DNA of 64,000 bases from positions 96,001-160,000 of the IMG/VR virus record IMGVR_UViG_3300048672_000512, one strand, 5' to 3'. The translations under genes and the position numbers were made by a program. Shown here piece after piece: positions 16,408-61,830 of this stretch. The notes beneath the pieces are model-generated. The model worked only from the letters and a program-made list of their open reading frames with translations, searched no databases and had not been told where the DNA came from. The first letter of the stretch is position 1, and every line of letters starts with the position of its first letter. Source of the stretch: a virus.

Positions 16408-16932
16408 TCATGTTACGTTCACTTCTCTCTTGTCAAGAGTGATCTTGAATATGTCTATAAGGTTGCGCAGACCAAACGCAGTTTGATCGATATCCTTTAT
16501 GTACAGGTCAACCGTGTCCTGCGTAGACTCAAGTTGAGACTGCAGGCGGATTGACCTTGAAATCAGCCTGTCGATAGCTGCGCGCCTGTCTTGTTGAGTA
16601 CGTCCGTATTCAGCTAGTTCTTCCGAGTACTCAGTTTGAATATGCCTACGCACGTTCGACATAGATACAGACAGGAGTTCATACGTGCGACTGCACAGAA
16701 CACGTAGCTCTGTCAAACGCGAACGAGCTGCCATGTCACCAGTCAACGCCTTTTGAATCATCGATGGAGTAAGCGCTGCAGTTGACAGCTTTCTGGAAGA
16801 TCGTGCGGAATGCAGAAACTCAGCTTCTCTAAGAATCTCTTCACAGTCGATAGCCGCTTCCACCGTATCGCGTATGTTGCGAAACCTAAGAAACTCAGCA
16901 TCCTTGTTTAGAATTGCTTTAAGGTTTGACAT
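16408..16932 (-). CDS. Helical protein, possible UvsY-like recombination mediator
   Basis: Adjacent to uvsW; the C-terminal DIDQTAFGLRNLIDIF loosely recalls the UvsY C-terminus. Confidence 0.4.
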   Translation of the reverse strand: MSNLKAILNKDAEFLRFRNIRDTVEAAIDCEEILREAEFLHSARSSRKLSTAALTPSMIQKALTGDMAARSRLTELRVLCSRTYELLSVSMSNVRRHIQTEYSEELAEYGRTQQDRRAAIDRLISRSIRLQSQLESTQDTVDLYIKDIDQTAFGLRNLIDIFKITLDKREVNVT

Positions 16933-16935
16933 GGA

Positions 16936-17358
16936 TTAGATCATTGTCAGGTAGCTATGCAACTTGTCGTCCAACTCGCCACCTACAACCAACGTGCCCT
17001 TGTTTGGAACATGGTAGACGCACAGCTGCTTGGTGCGAATCGGAACCTGTATCTCCGAGTTCTCAACGCTGACGTTTGCTGCTGTTTCTCGCCATGAGTT
17101 ATGAACGTACAGAAGACCTGTAGGTAGGGCTATGAGAGGCTGCGGACTCTTGAAAAGATAACCAACCTGCTCGTTGCCTCTAAACAAGGTTCCAACAGAC
17201 ATTGGAAGCCTGAGCCCTTCAGCCGTTGAAGTTAGCCTCTTTGCTCTAACCGAGTCTCCTGCAACCAGCTTAGCCGTCGTGAAAATGTAGGAGTTATCTA
17301 CAACTGGCAGCGTGTAGAAAATTCCTTGCACGTACGTAGCTCTTATTAAGTACGGCAT
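16936..17358 (-). CDS. Hypothetical protein
   Basis: 140-aa ORF in the operon. Confidence 0.65.
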   Translation of the reverse strand: MPYLIRATYVQGIFYTLPVVDNSYIFTTAKLVAGDSVRAKRLTSTAEGLRLPMSVGTLFRGNEQVGYLFKSPQPLIALPTGLLYVHNSWRETAANVSVENSEIQVPIRTKQLCVYHVPNKGTLVVGGELDDKLHSYLTMI

Positions 17359-17366
17359 ACATCAGT

Positions 17367-18464
17367 TCAAATTTCTGAAGTCTGAGCGGCAAACAAGAGT
17401 TCGTCAGTCTTGACGCATAGGGCTCCGTCATTGACTGACATGGTAACGGTGTCGGTTGAGCACTTGGAAAGAATGTTCTGAAGGAACTTCACTTCCAGTC
17501 CAAAGGTAGCGCTGCCTTTGCCATTCACCTCAAGCGAGCTTGACGCTTTACCTGCAGAGCTGTTTACTGACAGAGCTAGCGTGCTGCCCTTGAGAGCAAA
17601 CTTGATAACGGCGTCAGCACCGCCCTTGGAATCGTATAGAGAAACTGCTTTGGCAGACATCAAGTAGTCTTCAAGAGCTTCCTTGCTTACCGAGAAGTAG
17701 TTGCTGTCTCGTGTACCAAGTTCCTTTGCTTTGGTCAGCACGAGGTCACCAGTAGGTTCGTTATCGGCAAGCTCTGTCATCATGGTGACGATGGTGAAGT
17801 GCCCACTGCGAATGAGAACAGCCTCGTTTGAAACTTGCATCACCACGTCACTTGAAGGCAGTTCCTTCATGGTAGTTGCAAACCTTGGATAGGCCACATT
17901 CAACTCCATCGGCTCGATGTCAAAGGTGTTCTTTGCACCAGCGTAAACAAGCTGAAAGCCATTCGAGTCATAGCCTACAAGAGACACCATCTTGGACGTA
18001 ACACGAATAAACAGACGCGGATCCGTTTGTGCGCTGTGTACTTTCTCAAGCTTCAGCAATGGAAGCTTTTCGTTTAGAAAAGCCCAGAAGGATGCTGTCA
18101 TCTTGAACTCGGTTGCGTCCTTCAGAAGGCTTACTTCCGGAACAACAGCAGCTGTAGTTGCACGCAGTTCCACGTTAGACCTTCCTGAGGAAATGACAAG
18201 CATGTCATTCTTCAGAGCGTAGGCTACATTTGTTTTCTTGCCAAGAGCAAGTTGCAGAGTATCGTAGGGAACCTGTATGGATTCAGAGCCGGTTAGAAAG
18301 GTGACAGGAAAGATGAACTTTGCAGATCCATACAGCGACGACATCGTCACCATAGTTCCCGACTTGTGACTAGTGAAGATCGCACTTGGAAATGCACCGA
18401 TTACCTTCTCTACCACCTTGAGGTAGACGTTAAGAGACGGGGCAGAATCTTTTTTGGTAGCCAT
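17367..18464 (-). CDS. DNA polymerase sliding clamp, bacterial beta (DnaN)-like
   Basis: 365 aa from ATG 18464 (RBS AAGGA); repeated beta-alpha pattern; C-terminal FGLEVKFLQNILSK...VTMSV resembles the beta-clamp third domain. Confidence 0.6.
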   Translation of the reverse strand: MATKKDSAPSLNVYLKVVEKVIGAFPSAIFTSHKSGTMVTMSSLYGSAKFIFPVTFLTGSESIQVPYDTLQLALGKKTNVAYALKNDMLVISSGRSNVELRATTAAVVPEVSLLKDATEFKMTASFWAFLNEKLPLLKLEKVHSAQTDPRLFIRVTSKMVSLVGYDSNGFQLVYAGAKNTFDIEPMELNVAYPRFATTMKELPSSDVVMQVSNEAVLIRSGHFTIVTMMTELADNEPTGDLVLTKAKELGTRDSNYFSVSKEALEDYLMSAKAVSLYDSKGGADAVIKFALKGSTLALSVNSSAGKASSSLEVNGKGSATFGLEVKFLQNILSKCSTDTVTMSVNDGALCVKTDELLFAAQTSEI

Positions 18465-33762: not shown

Positions 33763-34660
33763 ACTCCTTGCATGTAAACTTCACTTGTTCGATCACGCCA
33801 TAGTCTTGAACGTGATCACGATAGTCACACACCGTTTCGAGTTCATCGACGGTAAGTGACTGCACCAACTCAATTCGGTCTTTCAACGAAACCTGAACTT
33901 GACTTGCATCTTCTCCGTTGTACTTCAGATAGCTAGCAATGTCTGCAAGGTAGTCGATCTCTCGCGTTATGTCTGGCGAAGTGTCAACGATGTCCTCAAG
34001 CTCAAGCAGATCACGAACCGTTGCCGGATGAAAAGCAAAAGGCGTAGACTCAAGAGCACTGCCGTTTTGCGCTACAAACTCTGCAACAGGTCCGTAGTCA
34101 AATTCGTTTTCTGTCAGTGTCGTTCGATTGATAGTGACAATCGTCTTGAGCGTTTCTGGCTTGAGTTCTCCAGACTTGATCTTCTTGAGGTGATCAGGGT
34201 TGTTGCAGAAACCAACGTGCGTAAGCGGGCTTCGTGTGTAGTGGTTGATTCGCAACCAATACAGCAACCAGTAGTAGTCTGGAATCGTCAGGTCAAGCGT
34301 GGAAACAGGAAGGCCGTCAGCGGTATGCAGAAGTGTAGAGACAGCTTCTGCCATGTGACGGTGGTTCTTCTCTGCAGCTGCTCGCGCAAACTTTGCTTGG
34401 TGGTAACCAAGAAGCGGAGAAACCGTCAGTGTCTTGAAATCGTAGAAGTAGAATTTGCTAGGCAGTTGAACGCTGACCACTTTCGGATTGACTGTTGCGG
34501 CATCCGAAGTTGCAGCAATATCAGTTCGAGCAACTGTATTGAACTTCGGGATCTGCACTTGCGCAGGTGCTGTAGTTTCCTGCACCTGAACTGTCGGACG
34601 TCGAACTTGAACGCTGACTCGGTTGTTAGAAGAATTTTGCTTTGACATAGTCTCTTGCAC
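33710..34660 (-). CDS. Baseplate hub/tail assembly chaperone (gp26-like)
   Basis: VQLPSKFYFY, DLTIPDYYWLLYWLRINHY, C-terminal CKECG, ends SFL. Confidence 0.65.
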   Translation of the reverse strand: MQETMSKQNSSNNRVSVQVRRPTVQVQETTAPAQVQIPKFNTVARTDIAATSDAATVNPKVVSVQLPSKFYFYDFKTLTVSPLLGYHQAKFARAAAEKNHRHMAEAVSTLLHTADGLPVSTLDLTIPDYYWLLYWLRINHYTRSPLTHVGFCNNPDHLKKIKSGELKPETLKTIVTINRTTLTENEFDYGPVAEFVAQNGSALESTPFAFHPATVRDLLELEDIVDTSPDITREIDYLADIASYLKYNGEDASQVQVSLKDRIELVQSLTVDELETVCDYRDHVQDYGVIEQVKFTCKECGAAVENEISIAAHSFL

Positions 34661-35612
34661 TTGCTGGCGTGAATGAAGGAATTCCTGATGCTAACAGGGA
34701 CGTAGGTAGTTTCGGCCCGCTAGGACCGCCCTGATCATTATTCACATTATCCAGCATGCCGCTTTCAACTGAAATGTGATCTACAGAAAGCTGCATTGTG
34801 GTAGTAAGGGGTTCAGAGGAACTGCCATTCATCGCATAGGAGTCCCATGAGACAGGAAAGCAACCTATGAAGGTGAACTTCACCAAGGCATTGCGCCTAG
34901 CATCATGCACAATGCAGACAACGTTCCTCTTGTACTGCGACGGCATTCTATAGTTGCCAGTCTTGCTGTCAAACACTGAGTCAAACCAGGAACTAGCAAA
35001 CTGAAACGCCTGAGCTGTTGTATCCGTGAAGAAGGTTATTGCAATACCATCACACGAAAAAGCACCAGCGTAATTCTTAGCCTTGCCTTCTCGAAACACG
35101 GTGTGCACATCGAAGCTAAGGTGTGGCGTTTGTAGCGTCTCAATGTAGATTGGATCTATGATTGAATCGTTCTCACTCACCACTGGATTGACAAAGGCAA
35201 CCCACTCGAATGAAAGCAGCGGATCACCACGAGCCTGCATCTTCTTCTTGAAGTCTGCTTTCGTTTCCGGTGTTGCGTATGGTCCAAAGGCTGCAGTTTC
35301 AAAGGAGTTCAACCCACCCAAGTTTATGCCAAGAGCGGAACCTACATCCTTGAAAAGGTTTGCAGCTTTCTGCGCAGACACCAGAGCTTTGTTAGCAGAA
35401 CCCACAACCTGATTGACGCGACCCATTACGCGACCGGCACCTTGCGAAGCTGTATTAGTGACTCGATCCGCAAAGTTGCTAACCTTGTCTGCTGATACCG
35501 TTACGCGATCAACTACCTTGCCTGCAAAGCGAACAGGTTGCTGCGCTTGTTGTAGCTGAACCTTTGGTTGAAAGATGGATAGGCCTGTGGGTGGTCTTGG
35601 AATGAATGCCAT
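34626..35612 (-). CDS. Tail-tube-fold protein (gp19/gp54-like) with N-terminal extension
   Basis: DPLLSFEW...ITFFTD...YKRNV...FTFIGCFPVSW...MQLSVD. Confidence 0.7.
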   Translation of the reverse strand: MAFIPRPPTGLSIFQPKVQLQQAQQPVRFAGKVVDRVTVSADKVSNFADRVTNTASQGAGRVMGRVNQVVGSANKALVSAQKAANLFKDVGSALGINLGGLNSFETAAFGPYATPETKADFKKKMQARGDPLLSFEWVAFVNPVVSENDSIIDPIYIETLQTPHLSFDVHTVFREGKAKNYAGAFSCDGIAITFFTDTTAQAFQFASSWFDSVFDSKTGNYRMPSQYKRNVVCIVHDARRNALVKFTFIGCFPVSWDSYAMNGSSSEPLTTTMQLSVDHISVESGMLDNVNNDQGGPSGPKLPTSLLASGIPSFTPASARDYVKAKFF

Positions 35613-35880: not shown

Positions 35881-35915
35881 AAACCCCCGGAGACAGCACG
35901 TTTCCGGGGGTTTTT
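35881..35915. terminator. Bidirectional-type terminator hairpin
   Basis: AAACCCCCGGA...TCCGGGGGTTTTT with A/T tracts on both sides. Confidence 0.8.
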
Positions 35916-35956
35916 CGCTTCTGCACCCGAAACTACGGTAGGGCAGGGAAACTGCA

Positions 35957-36028
35957 GTTTCCGATCGTTTTCGTAATGAAAAAACAGCAGGAAACAGTGG
36001 TTTCCGTGCCGAGACGTGTATCTGGGTG
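35957..36028 (-). repeat. 72-bp dispersed element, copy A (inverted relative to 61759..61830)
   Basis: Hand alignment: 62/72 identical to the reverse complement of copy B. Confidence 0.9.
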
Positions 36029-36059: not shown

Positions 36060-36857
36060 TTAGCCTTCGCTGTAATCGAAGCTGAACTGAATGCTGTAGC
36101 GCACGATGTCGCCAGTTTGATCCAGCTGCACGTCATCGATAGACGTCGGAAACACACCAAACAGTTTGATCTCACGAACTACTTGCGGCAGATCGTCATA
36201 AAGCTCAAGACTCACAGTGGTTGAGTAGATAGACTTGTAGCTACCGGCATTTGCTTTCCAGCTACGTGCAAGTTCTTGCCAAGCTAGAAAGGCGTCACGC
36301 GTAGACGAGTCTCGCGTTTCCACCAGCGTCACATTCCAGGTTCCATCCCACTGACGGCGACCTGCAAAGTTCAGCTTGATGCCATGAGCTTCAAGTCCAA
36401 CTTGCTCCAGCTTTGAACCCGGAATAGAAGTGCTCAGCGCCTTGTAGCTGACCTCTCGTGAAAGACTGGATCCGGGAATGTTTGGAATCGTCAAATTCCA
36501 GTTCCACATTTGTAACGGCGTTTTGTTATCGCTTTGGCATTTAACCAAAGCCTCTTTATCTTTCGATAAAGACCAGACTATATCATCGGTCTAACGTGAC
36601 CGTCGCGCGCTCGTGGGTGGAGTATTGTTTCCTCACCACCTAGTCGTTGAACCCACTCTCTTCTCTCGCTTTACGCTACTTAAGAGGCTTGGCTGCTGAT
36701 TGTCCAATGCTTGATGTTTTTAGCGTTCACGTTCACTCTCACGAGTCTCGTTGTAGCCATCAAGCCTCTAAGGATGTTCCAGCAATTCACGCGATTTACC
36801 CTGGACCTGAAGTTAATCCAGCACACTCATCATTTCTTGAAGACCAGGACGTGCCAT
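36060..36857 (-). CDS. Major tail tube protein, spliced: exon 1 36857-36816, exon 2 36518-36060 (166 aa)
   Basis: AAAGGA RBS then MARPGLQEMMSVLD joined in frame to PLQMWNWNLTIP...FAGRRQW...LFGVFPTSI...FSFDY (gp19-like); directly downstream of the sheath gene. Confidence 0.85.
36519..36815 (-). ncRNA. Group I self-splicing intron (IA-like, no ORF), 297 nt
   Basis: P GAAUUGCUGGAA, Q AAUCAGCAGCC, R GUUCAACGACUA, S GAUGAUAUAGUCU; P7 GACUA/UAGUC; P9 CUUUAUC-GAAA-GAUAAAG; 5' splice after U with U.G pair in P1; terminal G. Confidence 0.93.
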
Positions 36858-36868
36858 GTCTGTTTCCT

Positions 36869-38806
36869 TTAAGCAGACGCAATGGTCTGTTCATCAACGG
36901 TAAGACCTTGCTTGGAAATGAACAGCGTAAGCTGAACTTCACGAACGGCAAGGATCGGAGTGATAACAATAGACACTGCAAGAATGCCACTGTTCACAAG
37001 AGCAGCAGTGTTGTTGGTGTCGTCAATAACAACTCGATACGAGCTGATACCGCGACCTGCCTGAACACTTGTCAGATACTCTTCAAGAGCAAACTGCACC
37101 TGCTTGCGCAGAATGTCATCGTTCGGTTCTTGCAGTTGATAGATCAGGTAGTTGTAGCAACTACGCTTGATGATGTTGCAGAGAACACGAATGTTGATGA
37201 ACTGCAACGCGCTGTTGGCACTGTACAGTGTGTTCTGTTCCCAAAACACAATACCGCGTCCAACGAACTTGCGAATGTAGCTGATGTTTGAAGTAGTGAC
37301 CAGCGTAGCTTCGCTATCCGTGTACGTGTTGCGAACGTCAACAACGTTGCCAAGAATCTGACCGCGATTCAAACCAGCAGTAGAGAACCACGGTTGGAAC
37401 GCCCGGAAGGTGCGAGCAAGCAGACCTGCAATAACACCAGACGGCGGAACGTACAGAAGCTTGCCATTGATCGGATCGGTTTCACGAACGTCCTGAGCAA
37501 TCAGAGCTGCATACGAAGAGTTGACATTCAACGTCAGATTCTTGAAGTCAACGACGCTCTGTGCTGTTTGATTACTCGACGGTGCGTCAAGGTAGGCAAT
37601 ACAGTCAGAGCGATTTTCCGCAAGCGTTGTCATGTGCTGTTGCACAGACGCAACCGTGCGGCCAGCGTTGATCAGAACATCAATCGCATACAGTTCACGA
37701 TTGCTGAACTTGTCCCATGCAGCATTCACGTCTGCCGACGTGGGCGCAGCACCAGAAGTACCACCTGCAAGCGCCACGTAAGTAGCCGTAGTGGAAAGAA
37801 CCGGAGTAGTCAGCAGCGAGGTGACGTTCGATTCAACGCGAATGTACTTAGAGTACGGATTGACGCGTTGCGTGATTTCCATCTGCGAGCCAGTCTCGTC
37901 AACCTGCTCAGTGACAGAACAAGTAAACGTTTCAACCGGCGTGACGCTAGAAAACGTCAGGTCAAAGACTTGCAACTTGAAAACAGGGCTTGGAGTGTTC
38001 GTGCCTGCAACAAGGATAGGCTGCGCACCTGCATCCGGAACAATGGAGCCGGTATCAATGTACGAAACAGCGGAGCCACCAACCTGAGCAATCAGACCGA
38101 GGCTTCCAGAAACACGACCGTAGATACGATAGCCAATTGCGTTCTCTACTTTGTTCCACGAGAGGTTGACAGAGTTTGTCGTAGTGACAGAACCAATGAC
38201 AACCGTGAAAGTAGCAGAGGCAACCGTCTCTGTGCCATCCTTTGCAATAGATGCAATCTGGTACGTGTAAGTAGCCGGACTGAGCGAGCCACCCGTCGTT
38301 GACGAACCTGCTGCAGTGTTCGACGGAGCAGCAATGTTGTCAGAAATGATGCGAACAGCAAGGTTGTTTCCGTAGGAACCAGGACCACGATTACTCGTGA
38401 TCTGATAAACGGCTGTCTCTCCGCCACTGACGTTAACACCAAAGTCAGGAGACGTAGGAACAGCAACACCCGAAGAGATACCTTGAATTACAGTGGCACC
38501 GGAACCATCGATCTTTACCGATGCGCCGGAGCGCTTGTGACCAGTGCCAGGAGCACGCACGGCCCACAGGCTGTTGCCCTCAAGAAGAAAGTCAAGAGCG
38601 CAGTAGTGATCAAAAGAAACCGAAGCCTTCGGATCGCCGTAGTGAAAACGGAAGTTGTCAGCAGAGCTGAAGAAGCGAGGAGTGTCATCGCCTTGCGAGC
38701 CAACGACCACAATAGCTGCCGTGCAGCCGCTCACTCCAGTAAGCGAGCTAGACAGGTCAACTTCAGAAATGCGTACGTCAGAAGCACGCTTGGAAAGATT
38801 AGCCAT
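36869..38806 (-). CDS. Tail sheath protein with FN3-like insertion
   Basis: VRISEVDLS, RSDCIAYLDAP, YVPPSGVIAG, FQPWFSTAGLNRG, LQFINIRVL, LQEPND. Confidence 0.93.
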   Translation of the reverse strand: MANLSKRASDVRISEVDLSSSLTGVSGCTAAIVVVGSQGDDTPRFFSSADNFRFHYGDPKASVSFDHYCALDFLLEGNSLWAVRAPGTGHKRSGASVKIDGSGATVIQGISSGVAVPTSPDFGVNVSGGETAVYQITSNRGPGSYGNNLAVRIISDNIAAPSNTAAGSSTTGGSLSPATYTYQIASIAKDGTETVASATFTVVIGSVTTTNSVNLSWNKVENAIGYRIYGRVSGSLGLIAQVGGSAVSYIDTGSIVPDAGAQPILVAGTNTPSPVFKLQVFDLTFSSVTPVETFTCSVTEQVDETGSQMEITQRVNPYSKYIRVESNVTSLLTTPVLSTTATYVALAGGTSGAAPTSADVNAAWDKFSNRELYAIDVLINAGRTVASVQQHMTTLAENRSDCIAYLDAPSSNQTAQSVVDFKNLTLNVNSSYAALIAQDVRETDPINGKLLYVPPSGVIAGLLARTFRAFQPWFSTAGLNRGQILGNVVDVRNTYTDSEATLVTTSNISYIRKFVGRGIVFWEQNTLYSANSALQFINIRVLCNIIKRSCYNYLIYQLQEPNDDILRKQVQFALEEYLTSVQAGRGISSYRVVIDDTNNTAALVNSGILAVSIVITPILAVREVQLTLFISKQGLTVDEQTIASA

Positions 38807-47950: not shown

Positions 47951-47977
47951 TTCGGTTATGTGTAACATGGGTAAACT
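47948..47977 (+). promoter_or_regulatory. Repeated promoter, variant copy
   Basis: TTGTTC-N18 (containing TGTAACA)-TAAACT, followed by GAAGGTGCGGGTAGC as at 55.67 kb. Confidence 0.6.
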
Positions 47978-48069
47978 GAAGGTGCGGGTAGCAAACTACC
48001 CGGCACACGAAGCCCCAAACAGAACTTGCTGGTTTGCGGGCTGCTCTTACCAAGTAAAGCGAGTGCATC

Positions 48070-48873: not shown

Positions 48874-48929
48874 TGTTACAAACTGTTACACTTTAGTTCT
48901 TGACAGAACGGGTGTAACAGTTTTAGACT
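48874..48929 (+). promoter_or_regulatory. Repeated sigma70-like promoter with TGTTACA/TGTAACA boxes
   Basis: TGTTACAAACTGTTACA...TTGACA(48900)-N18-TAGACT(48924). Confidence 0.8.
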
Positions 48930-48988
48930 GAAATCGCGGGTAGCGCGATTCGCTACCAAAACGCTTAAAGCGCCTTGAGGTAATATCC

Positions 48989-52873: not shown

Positions 52874-52928
52874 GTTACAAACTGTTACACTTTAGTTCTT
52901 GACAGAGAGTTTGTAACAGGAGTAAACT
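52874..52928 (+). promoter_or_regulatory. Repeated sigma70-like promoter
   Basis: GTTACAAACTGTTACA...TTGACA(52899)-N18 with TGTAACA-TAAACT(52923). Confidence 0.8.
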
Positions 52929-52969
52929 GAAGGTGTGGACACTGTTGTCCGAACGAACTGGAGATAGAC

Positions 52970-55063: not shown

Positions 55064-55648
55064 ATGAACTACGCAACGATTGAAATGCCGAGACACAAGG
55101 ACCATCCTCCTGTCTTCGAGCAAGAAGTAGAACCGTCCTATAACCAAGTAGCTTCTCAGATTGGCAATCCGATTCAGGTAGCGCTGTGGTCGGCAAACCG
55201 ATTCGAGTTCACAAGCAGCGTTCAGCGCAGCTTCTACTTTTCGTTGCGTAGTTGTCTGCCTCTGTTCTATCTGCTTGGCTTTCTTCTGAGCCTGTACATT
55301 CTAGCCTCGACCACCAAGGAATCGCTGGCGCTTCTGTTTGCTGCAATACGCGGTTTCTGGTTAGCCTGCTGGATGAACTTTGACCCCAGCTGGCAGGAGT
55401 GGTTTGTTTCTGCCTGCGGTGCTGTCGCTAGGTTCTTCTTTGGTGTCATCGGCTCGATTGCAATTGTGCTGTTCATGGTTGCAATGATGGGTCTACTTTG
55501 TTGGGGTGTGAGCGTAATGACGGGTCAGGCAATCTTTGTGCTGCTCACAACGGCAACAAGCCTTGCATGCACACTTGCAGACAATCTGCTAGCTCTGCTG
55601 CGCTGGATGCTACGCAAGAGTTACAAACTGTTACACTTTAGTTCTTGA
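55064..55648 (+). CDS. Membrane protein
   Basis: AAGGA RBS; several hydrophobic helices in the C-terminal half. Confidence 0.7.
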   Translation: MNYATIEMPRHKDHPPVFEQEVEPSYNQVASQIGNPIQVALWSANRFEFTSSVQRSFYFSLRSCLPLFYLLGFLLSLYILASTTKESLALLFAAIRGFWLACWMNFDPSWQEWFVSACGAVARFFFGVIGSIAIVLFMVAMMGLLCWGVSVMTGQAIFVLLTTATSLACTLADNLLALLRWMLRKSYKLLHFSS

Positions 55649-55675
55649 CAACCGGTTTGTAACAGAGGTAAACTG
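55620..55675 (+). promoter_or_regulatory. Repeated sigma70-like promoter
   Basis: GTTACAAACTGTTACA...TTGACA(55646)-N18 with TGTAACA-TAAACT(55670); overlaps the 3' end of the upstream gene. Confidence 0.8.
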
Positions 55676-55719
55676 AAGGTGCGGGTAGCGAAAACCTACC
55701 GTAACCAAAGGAGTTGATC

Positions 55720-61715: not shown

Positions 61716-61758
61716 AAACCCCTGAAAACACGCAGTTTTCAGGGGTTTTTCGCTTCTG
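61716..61758 (+). terminator. Terminator with TCGCTTCTG tail
   Basis: AAACCCCTGAAAAC...GTTTTCAGGGGTTTTT-CGCTTCTG. Confidence 0.8.
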
Positions 61759-61830
61759 CACCCAGATACACGTCTCGGGCTACAAACCCCTGTTTCCTGC
61801 TGTTTTTTCATTACAGAATCGACCGGAAAC
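61759..61830 (+). repeat. 72-bp dispersed element, copy B
   Basis: CACCCAGATACACGTCTCGG...CTGTTTCCTGCTGTTTTTTCATTAC...CGGAAAC; inverted copy at 35957..36028. Confidence 0.9.

Follow-up and report, generated by a model that had tools for sequence, protein, structure and literature searches.

Organization of the tail-tube locus

The window analyzed was a stretch of 64,000 nucleotides (positions 96,001 to 160,000) of the viral record IMGVR_UViG_3300048672_000512, in which the coordinates, strand and anatomy of an intron-split tail-tube gene were confirmed; the genes and intron parts of the locus given below all lie on the minus strand. The immediate upstream neighbor of the tube gene is a tail sheath gene of 645 aa (36869–38806; PHROG 23 tail sheath, E 3.4e-69; 44% to the phiRSL1 sheath), and its stop codon abuts the ribosome-binding site (RBS) of the tube gene, read from the sequence as AAGGA at 36865–36869. 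The anti-Shine-Dalgarno (SD) duplex of this site was -5.6 kcal/mol, compared with -1.7 and +1.2 kcal/mol for the alternative starts. The tube gene starts with the ATG at 36857, and its exon 1 (36816–36857; 42 nt, 14 codons) encodes MARPGLQEMMSVLD, which matches the N-termini of intron-less homologs; the last codon is GAT, specifying a conserved Asp. A group I intron of 297 nt follows in phase 0 (36519–36815). It opens with an in-frame TAA at 36815, closes with the omega-G, G36519, and encodes no ORF, its frame 0 being broken by five stops. Exon 2 (36060–36518; 152 codons plus the stop) matched PHROG 45 tail tube (E 1.4e-26), and the joined exons give a protein of 166 aa.

A second tube-like protein of 328 aa (PHROG 45/4542) is encoded downstream at 34626–35612, and no tblastn match to it was obtained with the spliced tube as query. 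It is probably a baseplate-proximal tube initiator rather than a substitute for the main tube, a role assigned by inference. Two kinds of intergenic repeats were also seen in the window. One element is shared by 35881–36028, just 3' of the tube gene, and 61716–61830, partly in direct and partly in inverted orientation; the copies are 26 kb apart, and the element is kept in the related contigs L010 and L054. The other is a repeat of ~70 nt containing TTGACA, with three copies at 48875–48945, 52874–52944 and 55620–55690 and a partial copy at 47961–47995, and is probably a regulated phage promoter.

The tube protein and its source phage

An earlier interpretation made from the letters alone (the sequence-only reading) had proposed a 166-aa gp19-like tube product, and both sequence and fold matches bore this out. 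The tube family profile matched T4 gp19 (E 3.3e-18), and the AlphaFold model of P0032, the intron-less twin of this protein (pLDDT 91), gave TM scores of 0.81–0.83 over 156–164 columns against T4 gp19 and the KP1 tube. Sequence, fold and the position after the sheath gene are all those of a T4 gp19-like tube. The tube gene is present as a single copy in the record, which has a CheckV completeness of about 75%. The nearest cultured phages were BcepSauron, BcepSaruman, phiRSL1 and Motura, with 40–44% in tube and sheath, and the source phage appears to be only distantly phiRSL1/BcepSauron-like. We would guess that the host is a proteobacterium.

Gene callers were expected to mis-annotate the split gene, and they do so: P0002, the database protein for this locus, is a 149-aa product. 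The false N-terminus had been predicted as MVKCQ; the database call instead starts with MWNWN. Mis-called versions in the databases have 149 aa here and 169, 191 and 221 aa in relatives, compared with 166–167 aa for the true protein. For a whole lineage of uncultured myophages, the intron model puts right how an essential structural gene is annotated.

Splice junction, same-site introns and intron-less alleles

Both proposed splice sites were upheld, by a gapless alignment of the joined protein to homologs and by exact intron-less alleles in a relative. Alignment with intron-less tube genes, which had been suggested as a check, matched the joined protein from residue 1, and residues 1–165 aligned without a gap to 16 intron-less viral loci and 20 database homologs. 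In these loci and homologs, an N-terminal arm of 13–16 residues ends in Asp and is followed by the residue that starts exon 2. Asp14 was kept in 72 of 74 homologs, which places the intron inside a conserved motif, the Asp-Pro that it interrupts.

Introns at the same site were found in the viral contigs L010, L054, L001, L055 and L009, and the site is occupied in three tube lineages whose proteins are just 54–60% identical. The introns of L010 and L054, close relatives of the source phage, were 91–92% identical to the source intron; those of a phage group of 169–177 kb (L001, L048, L050, L055 and L056) were about 72% identical, and that of L009 was 67% identical. Exon 1 is conserved in every intron-bearing lineage. 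A scan of viral contigs for the junction pattern returned L009 and one chance match, L046.

Three contigs, L051–L053, have exons about 99% identical to those of L001 and lack exactly its 281-nt intron, and the sequence of P0032 is identical, residue by residue, to the spliced product predicted for the intron-bearing L001 gene. The junction GAT|CC is therefore fixed in the L001 group independently of any RNA model.

Identity and structure of the intron

The search with the Rfam covariance model RF00028, also suggested in the sequence-only reading, matched the gap at 36865–36554 with 79.1 bits (gathering cut-off 50; E 1.9e-18), as expected for the group I intron that had been proposed inside the tube gene. 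This was the sole above-threshold match in the window and in the whole 178,048-base record. By every feature testable in this analysis, the 297-nt gap in the tube gene was confirmed as a group I intron. Translational bypass or frameshifting was rejected as an explanation: a complete ribozyme fills the gap, and in L001 and L009 the gap length is not divisible by three.

Energy folding alone gave P1, P3, P4, P5/P5a, P6, P7.1, P8 and both hairpins of the P9 region, with a folding z-score of -2.77. The core helices P3, P4, P6, P7 and P8 are present together with the P, Q, R and S elements, and the P1, P3, P5a, P7.1, two P9-region hairpins and terminal G (G36519) of the sequence-only reading were all located in the sequence. 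P2 is absent from the tube intron. An extra stem, P7.1, lies between P7 and P3, and the intron was therefore placed in group IA, with the reservation that phage introns fit the group I subgroups poorly (PMC11878797).

Five tube introns were aligned with twelve sister introns, and covariation was scored over a 60-pair structure including the P7 pseudoknot. P1 (36801–36821) pairs exon CUGGAU (36821–36816) with the internal guide GUCCAG (36806–36801), placing a U.G pair at the 5' splice site; a P1 of 6–7 bp with the U.G pair was found in all nine tube introns, and that of L009 carries a compensatory change (UUGGAU/GUCCAA). P3 (36603–36794) pairs 36794–36788 with 36609–36603 and encloses P4–P6 and P7.1. 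It was present as proposed, with 7 bp in place of the 6 bp first given, and across the 17 introns 96.6% of its cells were paired, with two-sided changes at 3 pairs. P4, P5 and a long P5 extension occupy 36693–36785, and P5a within it (36765–36758 with 36716–36709) showed two-sided changes at 8/8 pairs. P7 (36575–36647) includes G36645-C36576 and A36647-U36575 with a bulged C36646, and P7.1 (36640–36616) and P8 (36601–36588) lie between its strands. P7 was invariant in the 17 introns, including G36645-C36576, which, by established group I structure, we take to be the guanosine-binding pair. P4 and P6, like P7, were almost invariant across the 17 introns; P7.1 was 100% paired with one two-sided change; and P8, present in the tube intron, varies in length and aligns poorly across relatives. 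At the 3' end (36531–36572), P9 with its GAAA tetraloop (36572–36553) and P9.1 (36551–36531) covaried, with two-sided changes at 6/8 and 6/7 pairs, respectively.

Overall, 87.3% of cells were paired and two-sided changes occurred at 32/60 pairs. None of 500 shuffles scored as high, and slid partners gave 31–49%, in controls that ignore relatedness and with a structure drawn from the tube intron itself. The covariation supports the predicted intron structure, short of proof. The P10 pairing UAAC/GUUA of the sequence-only reading did not hold, as it is out of register and lacks conservation; the in-register P10 of the tube intron consists only of C-G, a mismatch and G-C, and a canonical 3-bp P10 (CCA/UGG) is found in L001, L055 and L009.

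Proposed splicing of the tube RNA and alternative explanations

The gap matches the intron family, its structure covaries, its boundaries are exact in a relative and the protein is identified as a tail tube. We hold with high confidence that a functional, ORF-less, IA-type self-splicing group I intron separates codons 14 and 15 of the only main tail-tube gene. In group I splicing, a guanosine bound in P7 cleaves the 5' site, and the freed exon then attacks after the terminal G. For the tube RNA in vivo, we infer a course of the same kind. Late in infection, a ribosome would translate exon 1 on the sheath-tube transcript and halt at TAA, the first codon of the intron, a halt that would keep it out of the ribozyme core. 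The U.G pair of P1 would define the 5' splice site, and free guanosine at the G36645-C36576 pair of P7 would attack, cleaving after the U. The omega-G and a weak P10 would define the 3' site; the freed exon would attack after the terminal G, and exon ligation would yield the gp19-like tube subunit of 166 aa. Group I introns of bacteria and phages generally have a stop codon at their start, a feature presumed to hold ribosomes off the core (PMC2504315, PMC3984707). Some phage group I introns failed to splice in vitro, outside the cell (PMC11878797); the 'self'-splicing of the tube intron may therefore need host factors.

As read from the sequence, unspliced RNA would give a 14-aa peptide. Tail assembly is likely to depend strictly on splicing, because the gene is the sole copy in the record, exon 1 residues are conserved and the alternative starts have no usable RBS. 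The intron itself would be a selfish element, kept functional because the tube gene is essential.

These arguments bear on the possibility of a genuine intron that has decayed or is not needed, with tube protein made from unspliced RNA via an internal start at TTG 36548 or ATG 36509 and lacking the conserved N-terminal arm. The frame is indeed open for 24 codons before exon 2, the TTG included, an in-frame start codon occurs in the intron tail of every intron-bearing relative, and gene callers choose such starts. However, the positions of these starts vary among relatives and fall inside the P9/P9.1 stems without a usable SD, whereas exon 1 keeps its good RBS and its conservation in all intron-bearing lineages; the near-universal Asp14, the invariant catalytic core and the covarying helices also argue for splicing, and internal initiation is scarcely credible. 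It is very unlikely, too, that the intron has been recruited as a regulatory switch, with tube synthesis gated by GTP level or translation state. In favor of such a role, 42 nt separate the intron from the start of an essential late gene with high expression, and phage introns have been suggested to act as a 'molecular on-switch' (PMC11878797). Yet the same population also contains intron-less alleles of 99% identity, and most tube homologs are intron-less, indicating that the intron is not required; no ligand-binding add-on was seen in it.

Another possibility is that the three intron-less contigs derive from spliced RNA or from misassembly and are not DNA alleles, as the perfect precision of the deletion might suggest; the libraries SRR35939759 and SRR35939771 may be of either kind. 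We regard this as unlikely, since all three carry C at position -13, in contrast to T in 14/14 intron-bearing contigs, and have their own haplotypes downstream, and one of them comes from a GenBank assembly. If the contigs were RNA, splicing would thereby be proven, so that the main conclusion, a functional intron in the tube gene, holds either way.

Relation to known phage introns

Introns in structural genes had been described as few in the sequence-only reading. This was overstated: tail-tube, tape-measure and head-gene introns have been published (PMC2504315, PMC11878797), with tape-measure, terminase and head-gene examples listed in PMC2504315. Capsid-gene group I introns are common in uncultured phages. 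What is new here is the insertion site and the host lineage; the tube intron is otherwise a known kind of element, and no new chemistry or element class is revealed by it.

The R and S elements, an extra stem between P7 and P3, a stop at the intron start and a similar 3' tail are features of the T4 td intron, and the source intron shares them with the group IA2 introns of T4 td, nrdB and sunY. The T4 introns lie in nucleotide-metabolism genes, and those of td and sunY carry homing endonucleases, whereas the source intron has neither P2 nor an ORF and has a long P5 extension.

Two tube-gene precedents were compared. A 1999 report by Landthaler and Shub is said to describe three group I introns in the orf142 tail-tube gene of Twort. 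Staphylococcus phage Twort orf142 is described as a tail-tube gene in PMC11878797, and three RF00028 matches were found in NC_007021 at 16606–17506, directly after the sheath gene. Both Twort and the source phage have group I introns in a tube gene located right after the sheath gene. However, the Twort tube belongs to another family (PHROG 985) and gave no tblastn match to the source tube; its three introns lie near the 3' end, in contrast to the one after codon 14 in the source phage, they show just short sequence matches to the source intron, and the host is Gram-positive. The second precedent is a tube-gene group I intron in the prophage region BwK1 on pBWB401 of KBAB4 (Tourasse and Kolsto 2008, PMC2504315). 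Like the source intron, this Bacillus weihenstephanensis/mycoides KBAB4 intron is single and lacks a complete endonuclease gene, and the two resemble each other in P4-P5, where both have a P5 extension (69% over 75 nt), but the tube sequence is unrelated, the insertion follows about codon 60 and there is extra sequence beyond P7.

The nearest introns by sequence were those of the capsid genes L029–L044 (SU10_MCP PF17236, Phage_capsid_4 PF25209), with 64–74% core identity. They share the P7.1 loop motif and the P9/P9.1 layout with the tube introns; they differ in their host gene, and several contain an HNH ORF between P1 and P3, compared with none of the tube introns. The tube intron is one more sign that phage group I introns also occur outside DNA-metabolism genes; their skew toward such genes is still treated as a central puzzle in a 2025 paper (PMC11878797).

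Intron lineage and possible mobility

On a tree of 49 tube sequences, intron presence required at least three gains or losses, and the closest outside tube homologs of the source phage (64–66%) are intron-less. A scan of viral contigs for the exact P7/P7.1 motif yielded 17 further stretches, some of them near-duplicates, and all eight that were tested lie in major capsid genes; no match was obtained when bacterial and archaeal genomes were scanned for the P7.1 motif, and no near-full-length relative of the intron was found in any cultured phage or plasmid. A looser scan returned many further group I introns, in capsid genes belonging to several families and also in helicase and RNA polymerase genes. 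Capsid-gene introns make up L029–L044 and many of L057–L135 (SU10_MCP, Phage_capsid_4, P22 coat, Phage_capsid_2 and HK97-type), at several different sites and some with HNH ORFs. Related group I cores were also seen in L087 and L070, upstream of what was judged by eye from the translation to be DnaK/Hsp70-like coding sequence.

In a FastTree tree of the cores, with a weak backbone, the tube introns formed one clade (support 0.98) among the capsid-gene introns, and the tube intron may have originated from capsid-gene introns. In a comparison of the intron and tube trees for incongruence, pairwise intron identities were almost equal (0.67–0.73), and the branch on which the intron and tube trees conflict had a support of only 0.88.

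None of the nine tube introns, of 279–307 nt, contains a homing endonuclease gene, and the source intron does not count as self-mobile. No nuclease gene was recognized among the tube-gene neighbors tested; in the record, about 75% complete, there was no match to GIY-YIG or DUF7487. A 136-aa gene of no recognized family (L001:4326-4736) lies between sheath and tube in the L001 group and is absent from the source phage. It was rejected as a partner nuclease, having no Pfam, PHROG or Atlas match and being found beside an intron-less allele as well. In the intron-less relative L176 (L176:55-1035), a 326-aa DUF7487 and TnsA-like endonuclease gene lies two genes ahead of the tube gene, showing that this neighborhood can harbor nuclease-like genes.

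In the L001 population, a silent base 13 nt upstream of the intron site was T in 14/14 intron-bearing contigs checked and C in 3/3 intron-less contigs. This base was the sole difference between L052 and L001 besides the intron, and the rest of the gene is shared freely in the population; L050 and L001 differ at 24/504 exon sites with an identical intron. The linkage at -13, observed with three intron-less contigs, and the free sharing of the rest of the gene suggest that haplotypes exchange the intron, or its absence, within a short block, whether through homing in trans or through ordinary recombination, hinting at recent movement of the L001-group intron without a nuclease of its own. A wider scenario is possible though doubtful, in which the tube introns would be a branch of an undescribed lineage favoring structural genes that jumped from capsid to tube gene, with trans-nuclease homing ongoing and the C at -13 conferring a resistance to cleavage that would allow the intron-less alleles to persist. 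A relative with both intron-plus and intron-minus alleles offers a natural test case for the movement or loss of a nuclease-less intron.

Other endonuclease and intein sequences were seen in the record. A small free-standing HNH gene (G000:C1:30270-30404) lies about 100 kb from the intron, after a 1497-aa ORF with an N-terminal intein-like motif. Outside the window, GyrB- and GyrA-type topoisomerase II genes (G000:C1:167856-177274, L172) contain several inteins with HNH_3 endonuclease domains. The GyrB part consists of two overlapping ORFs, the second of which begins with an intein C-terminal piece, and this arrangement could represent a frameshift or a split intein.
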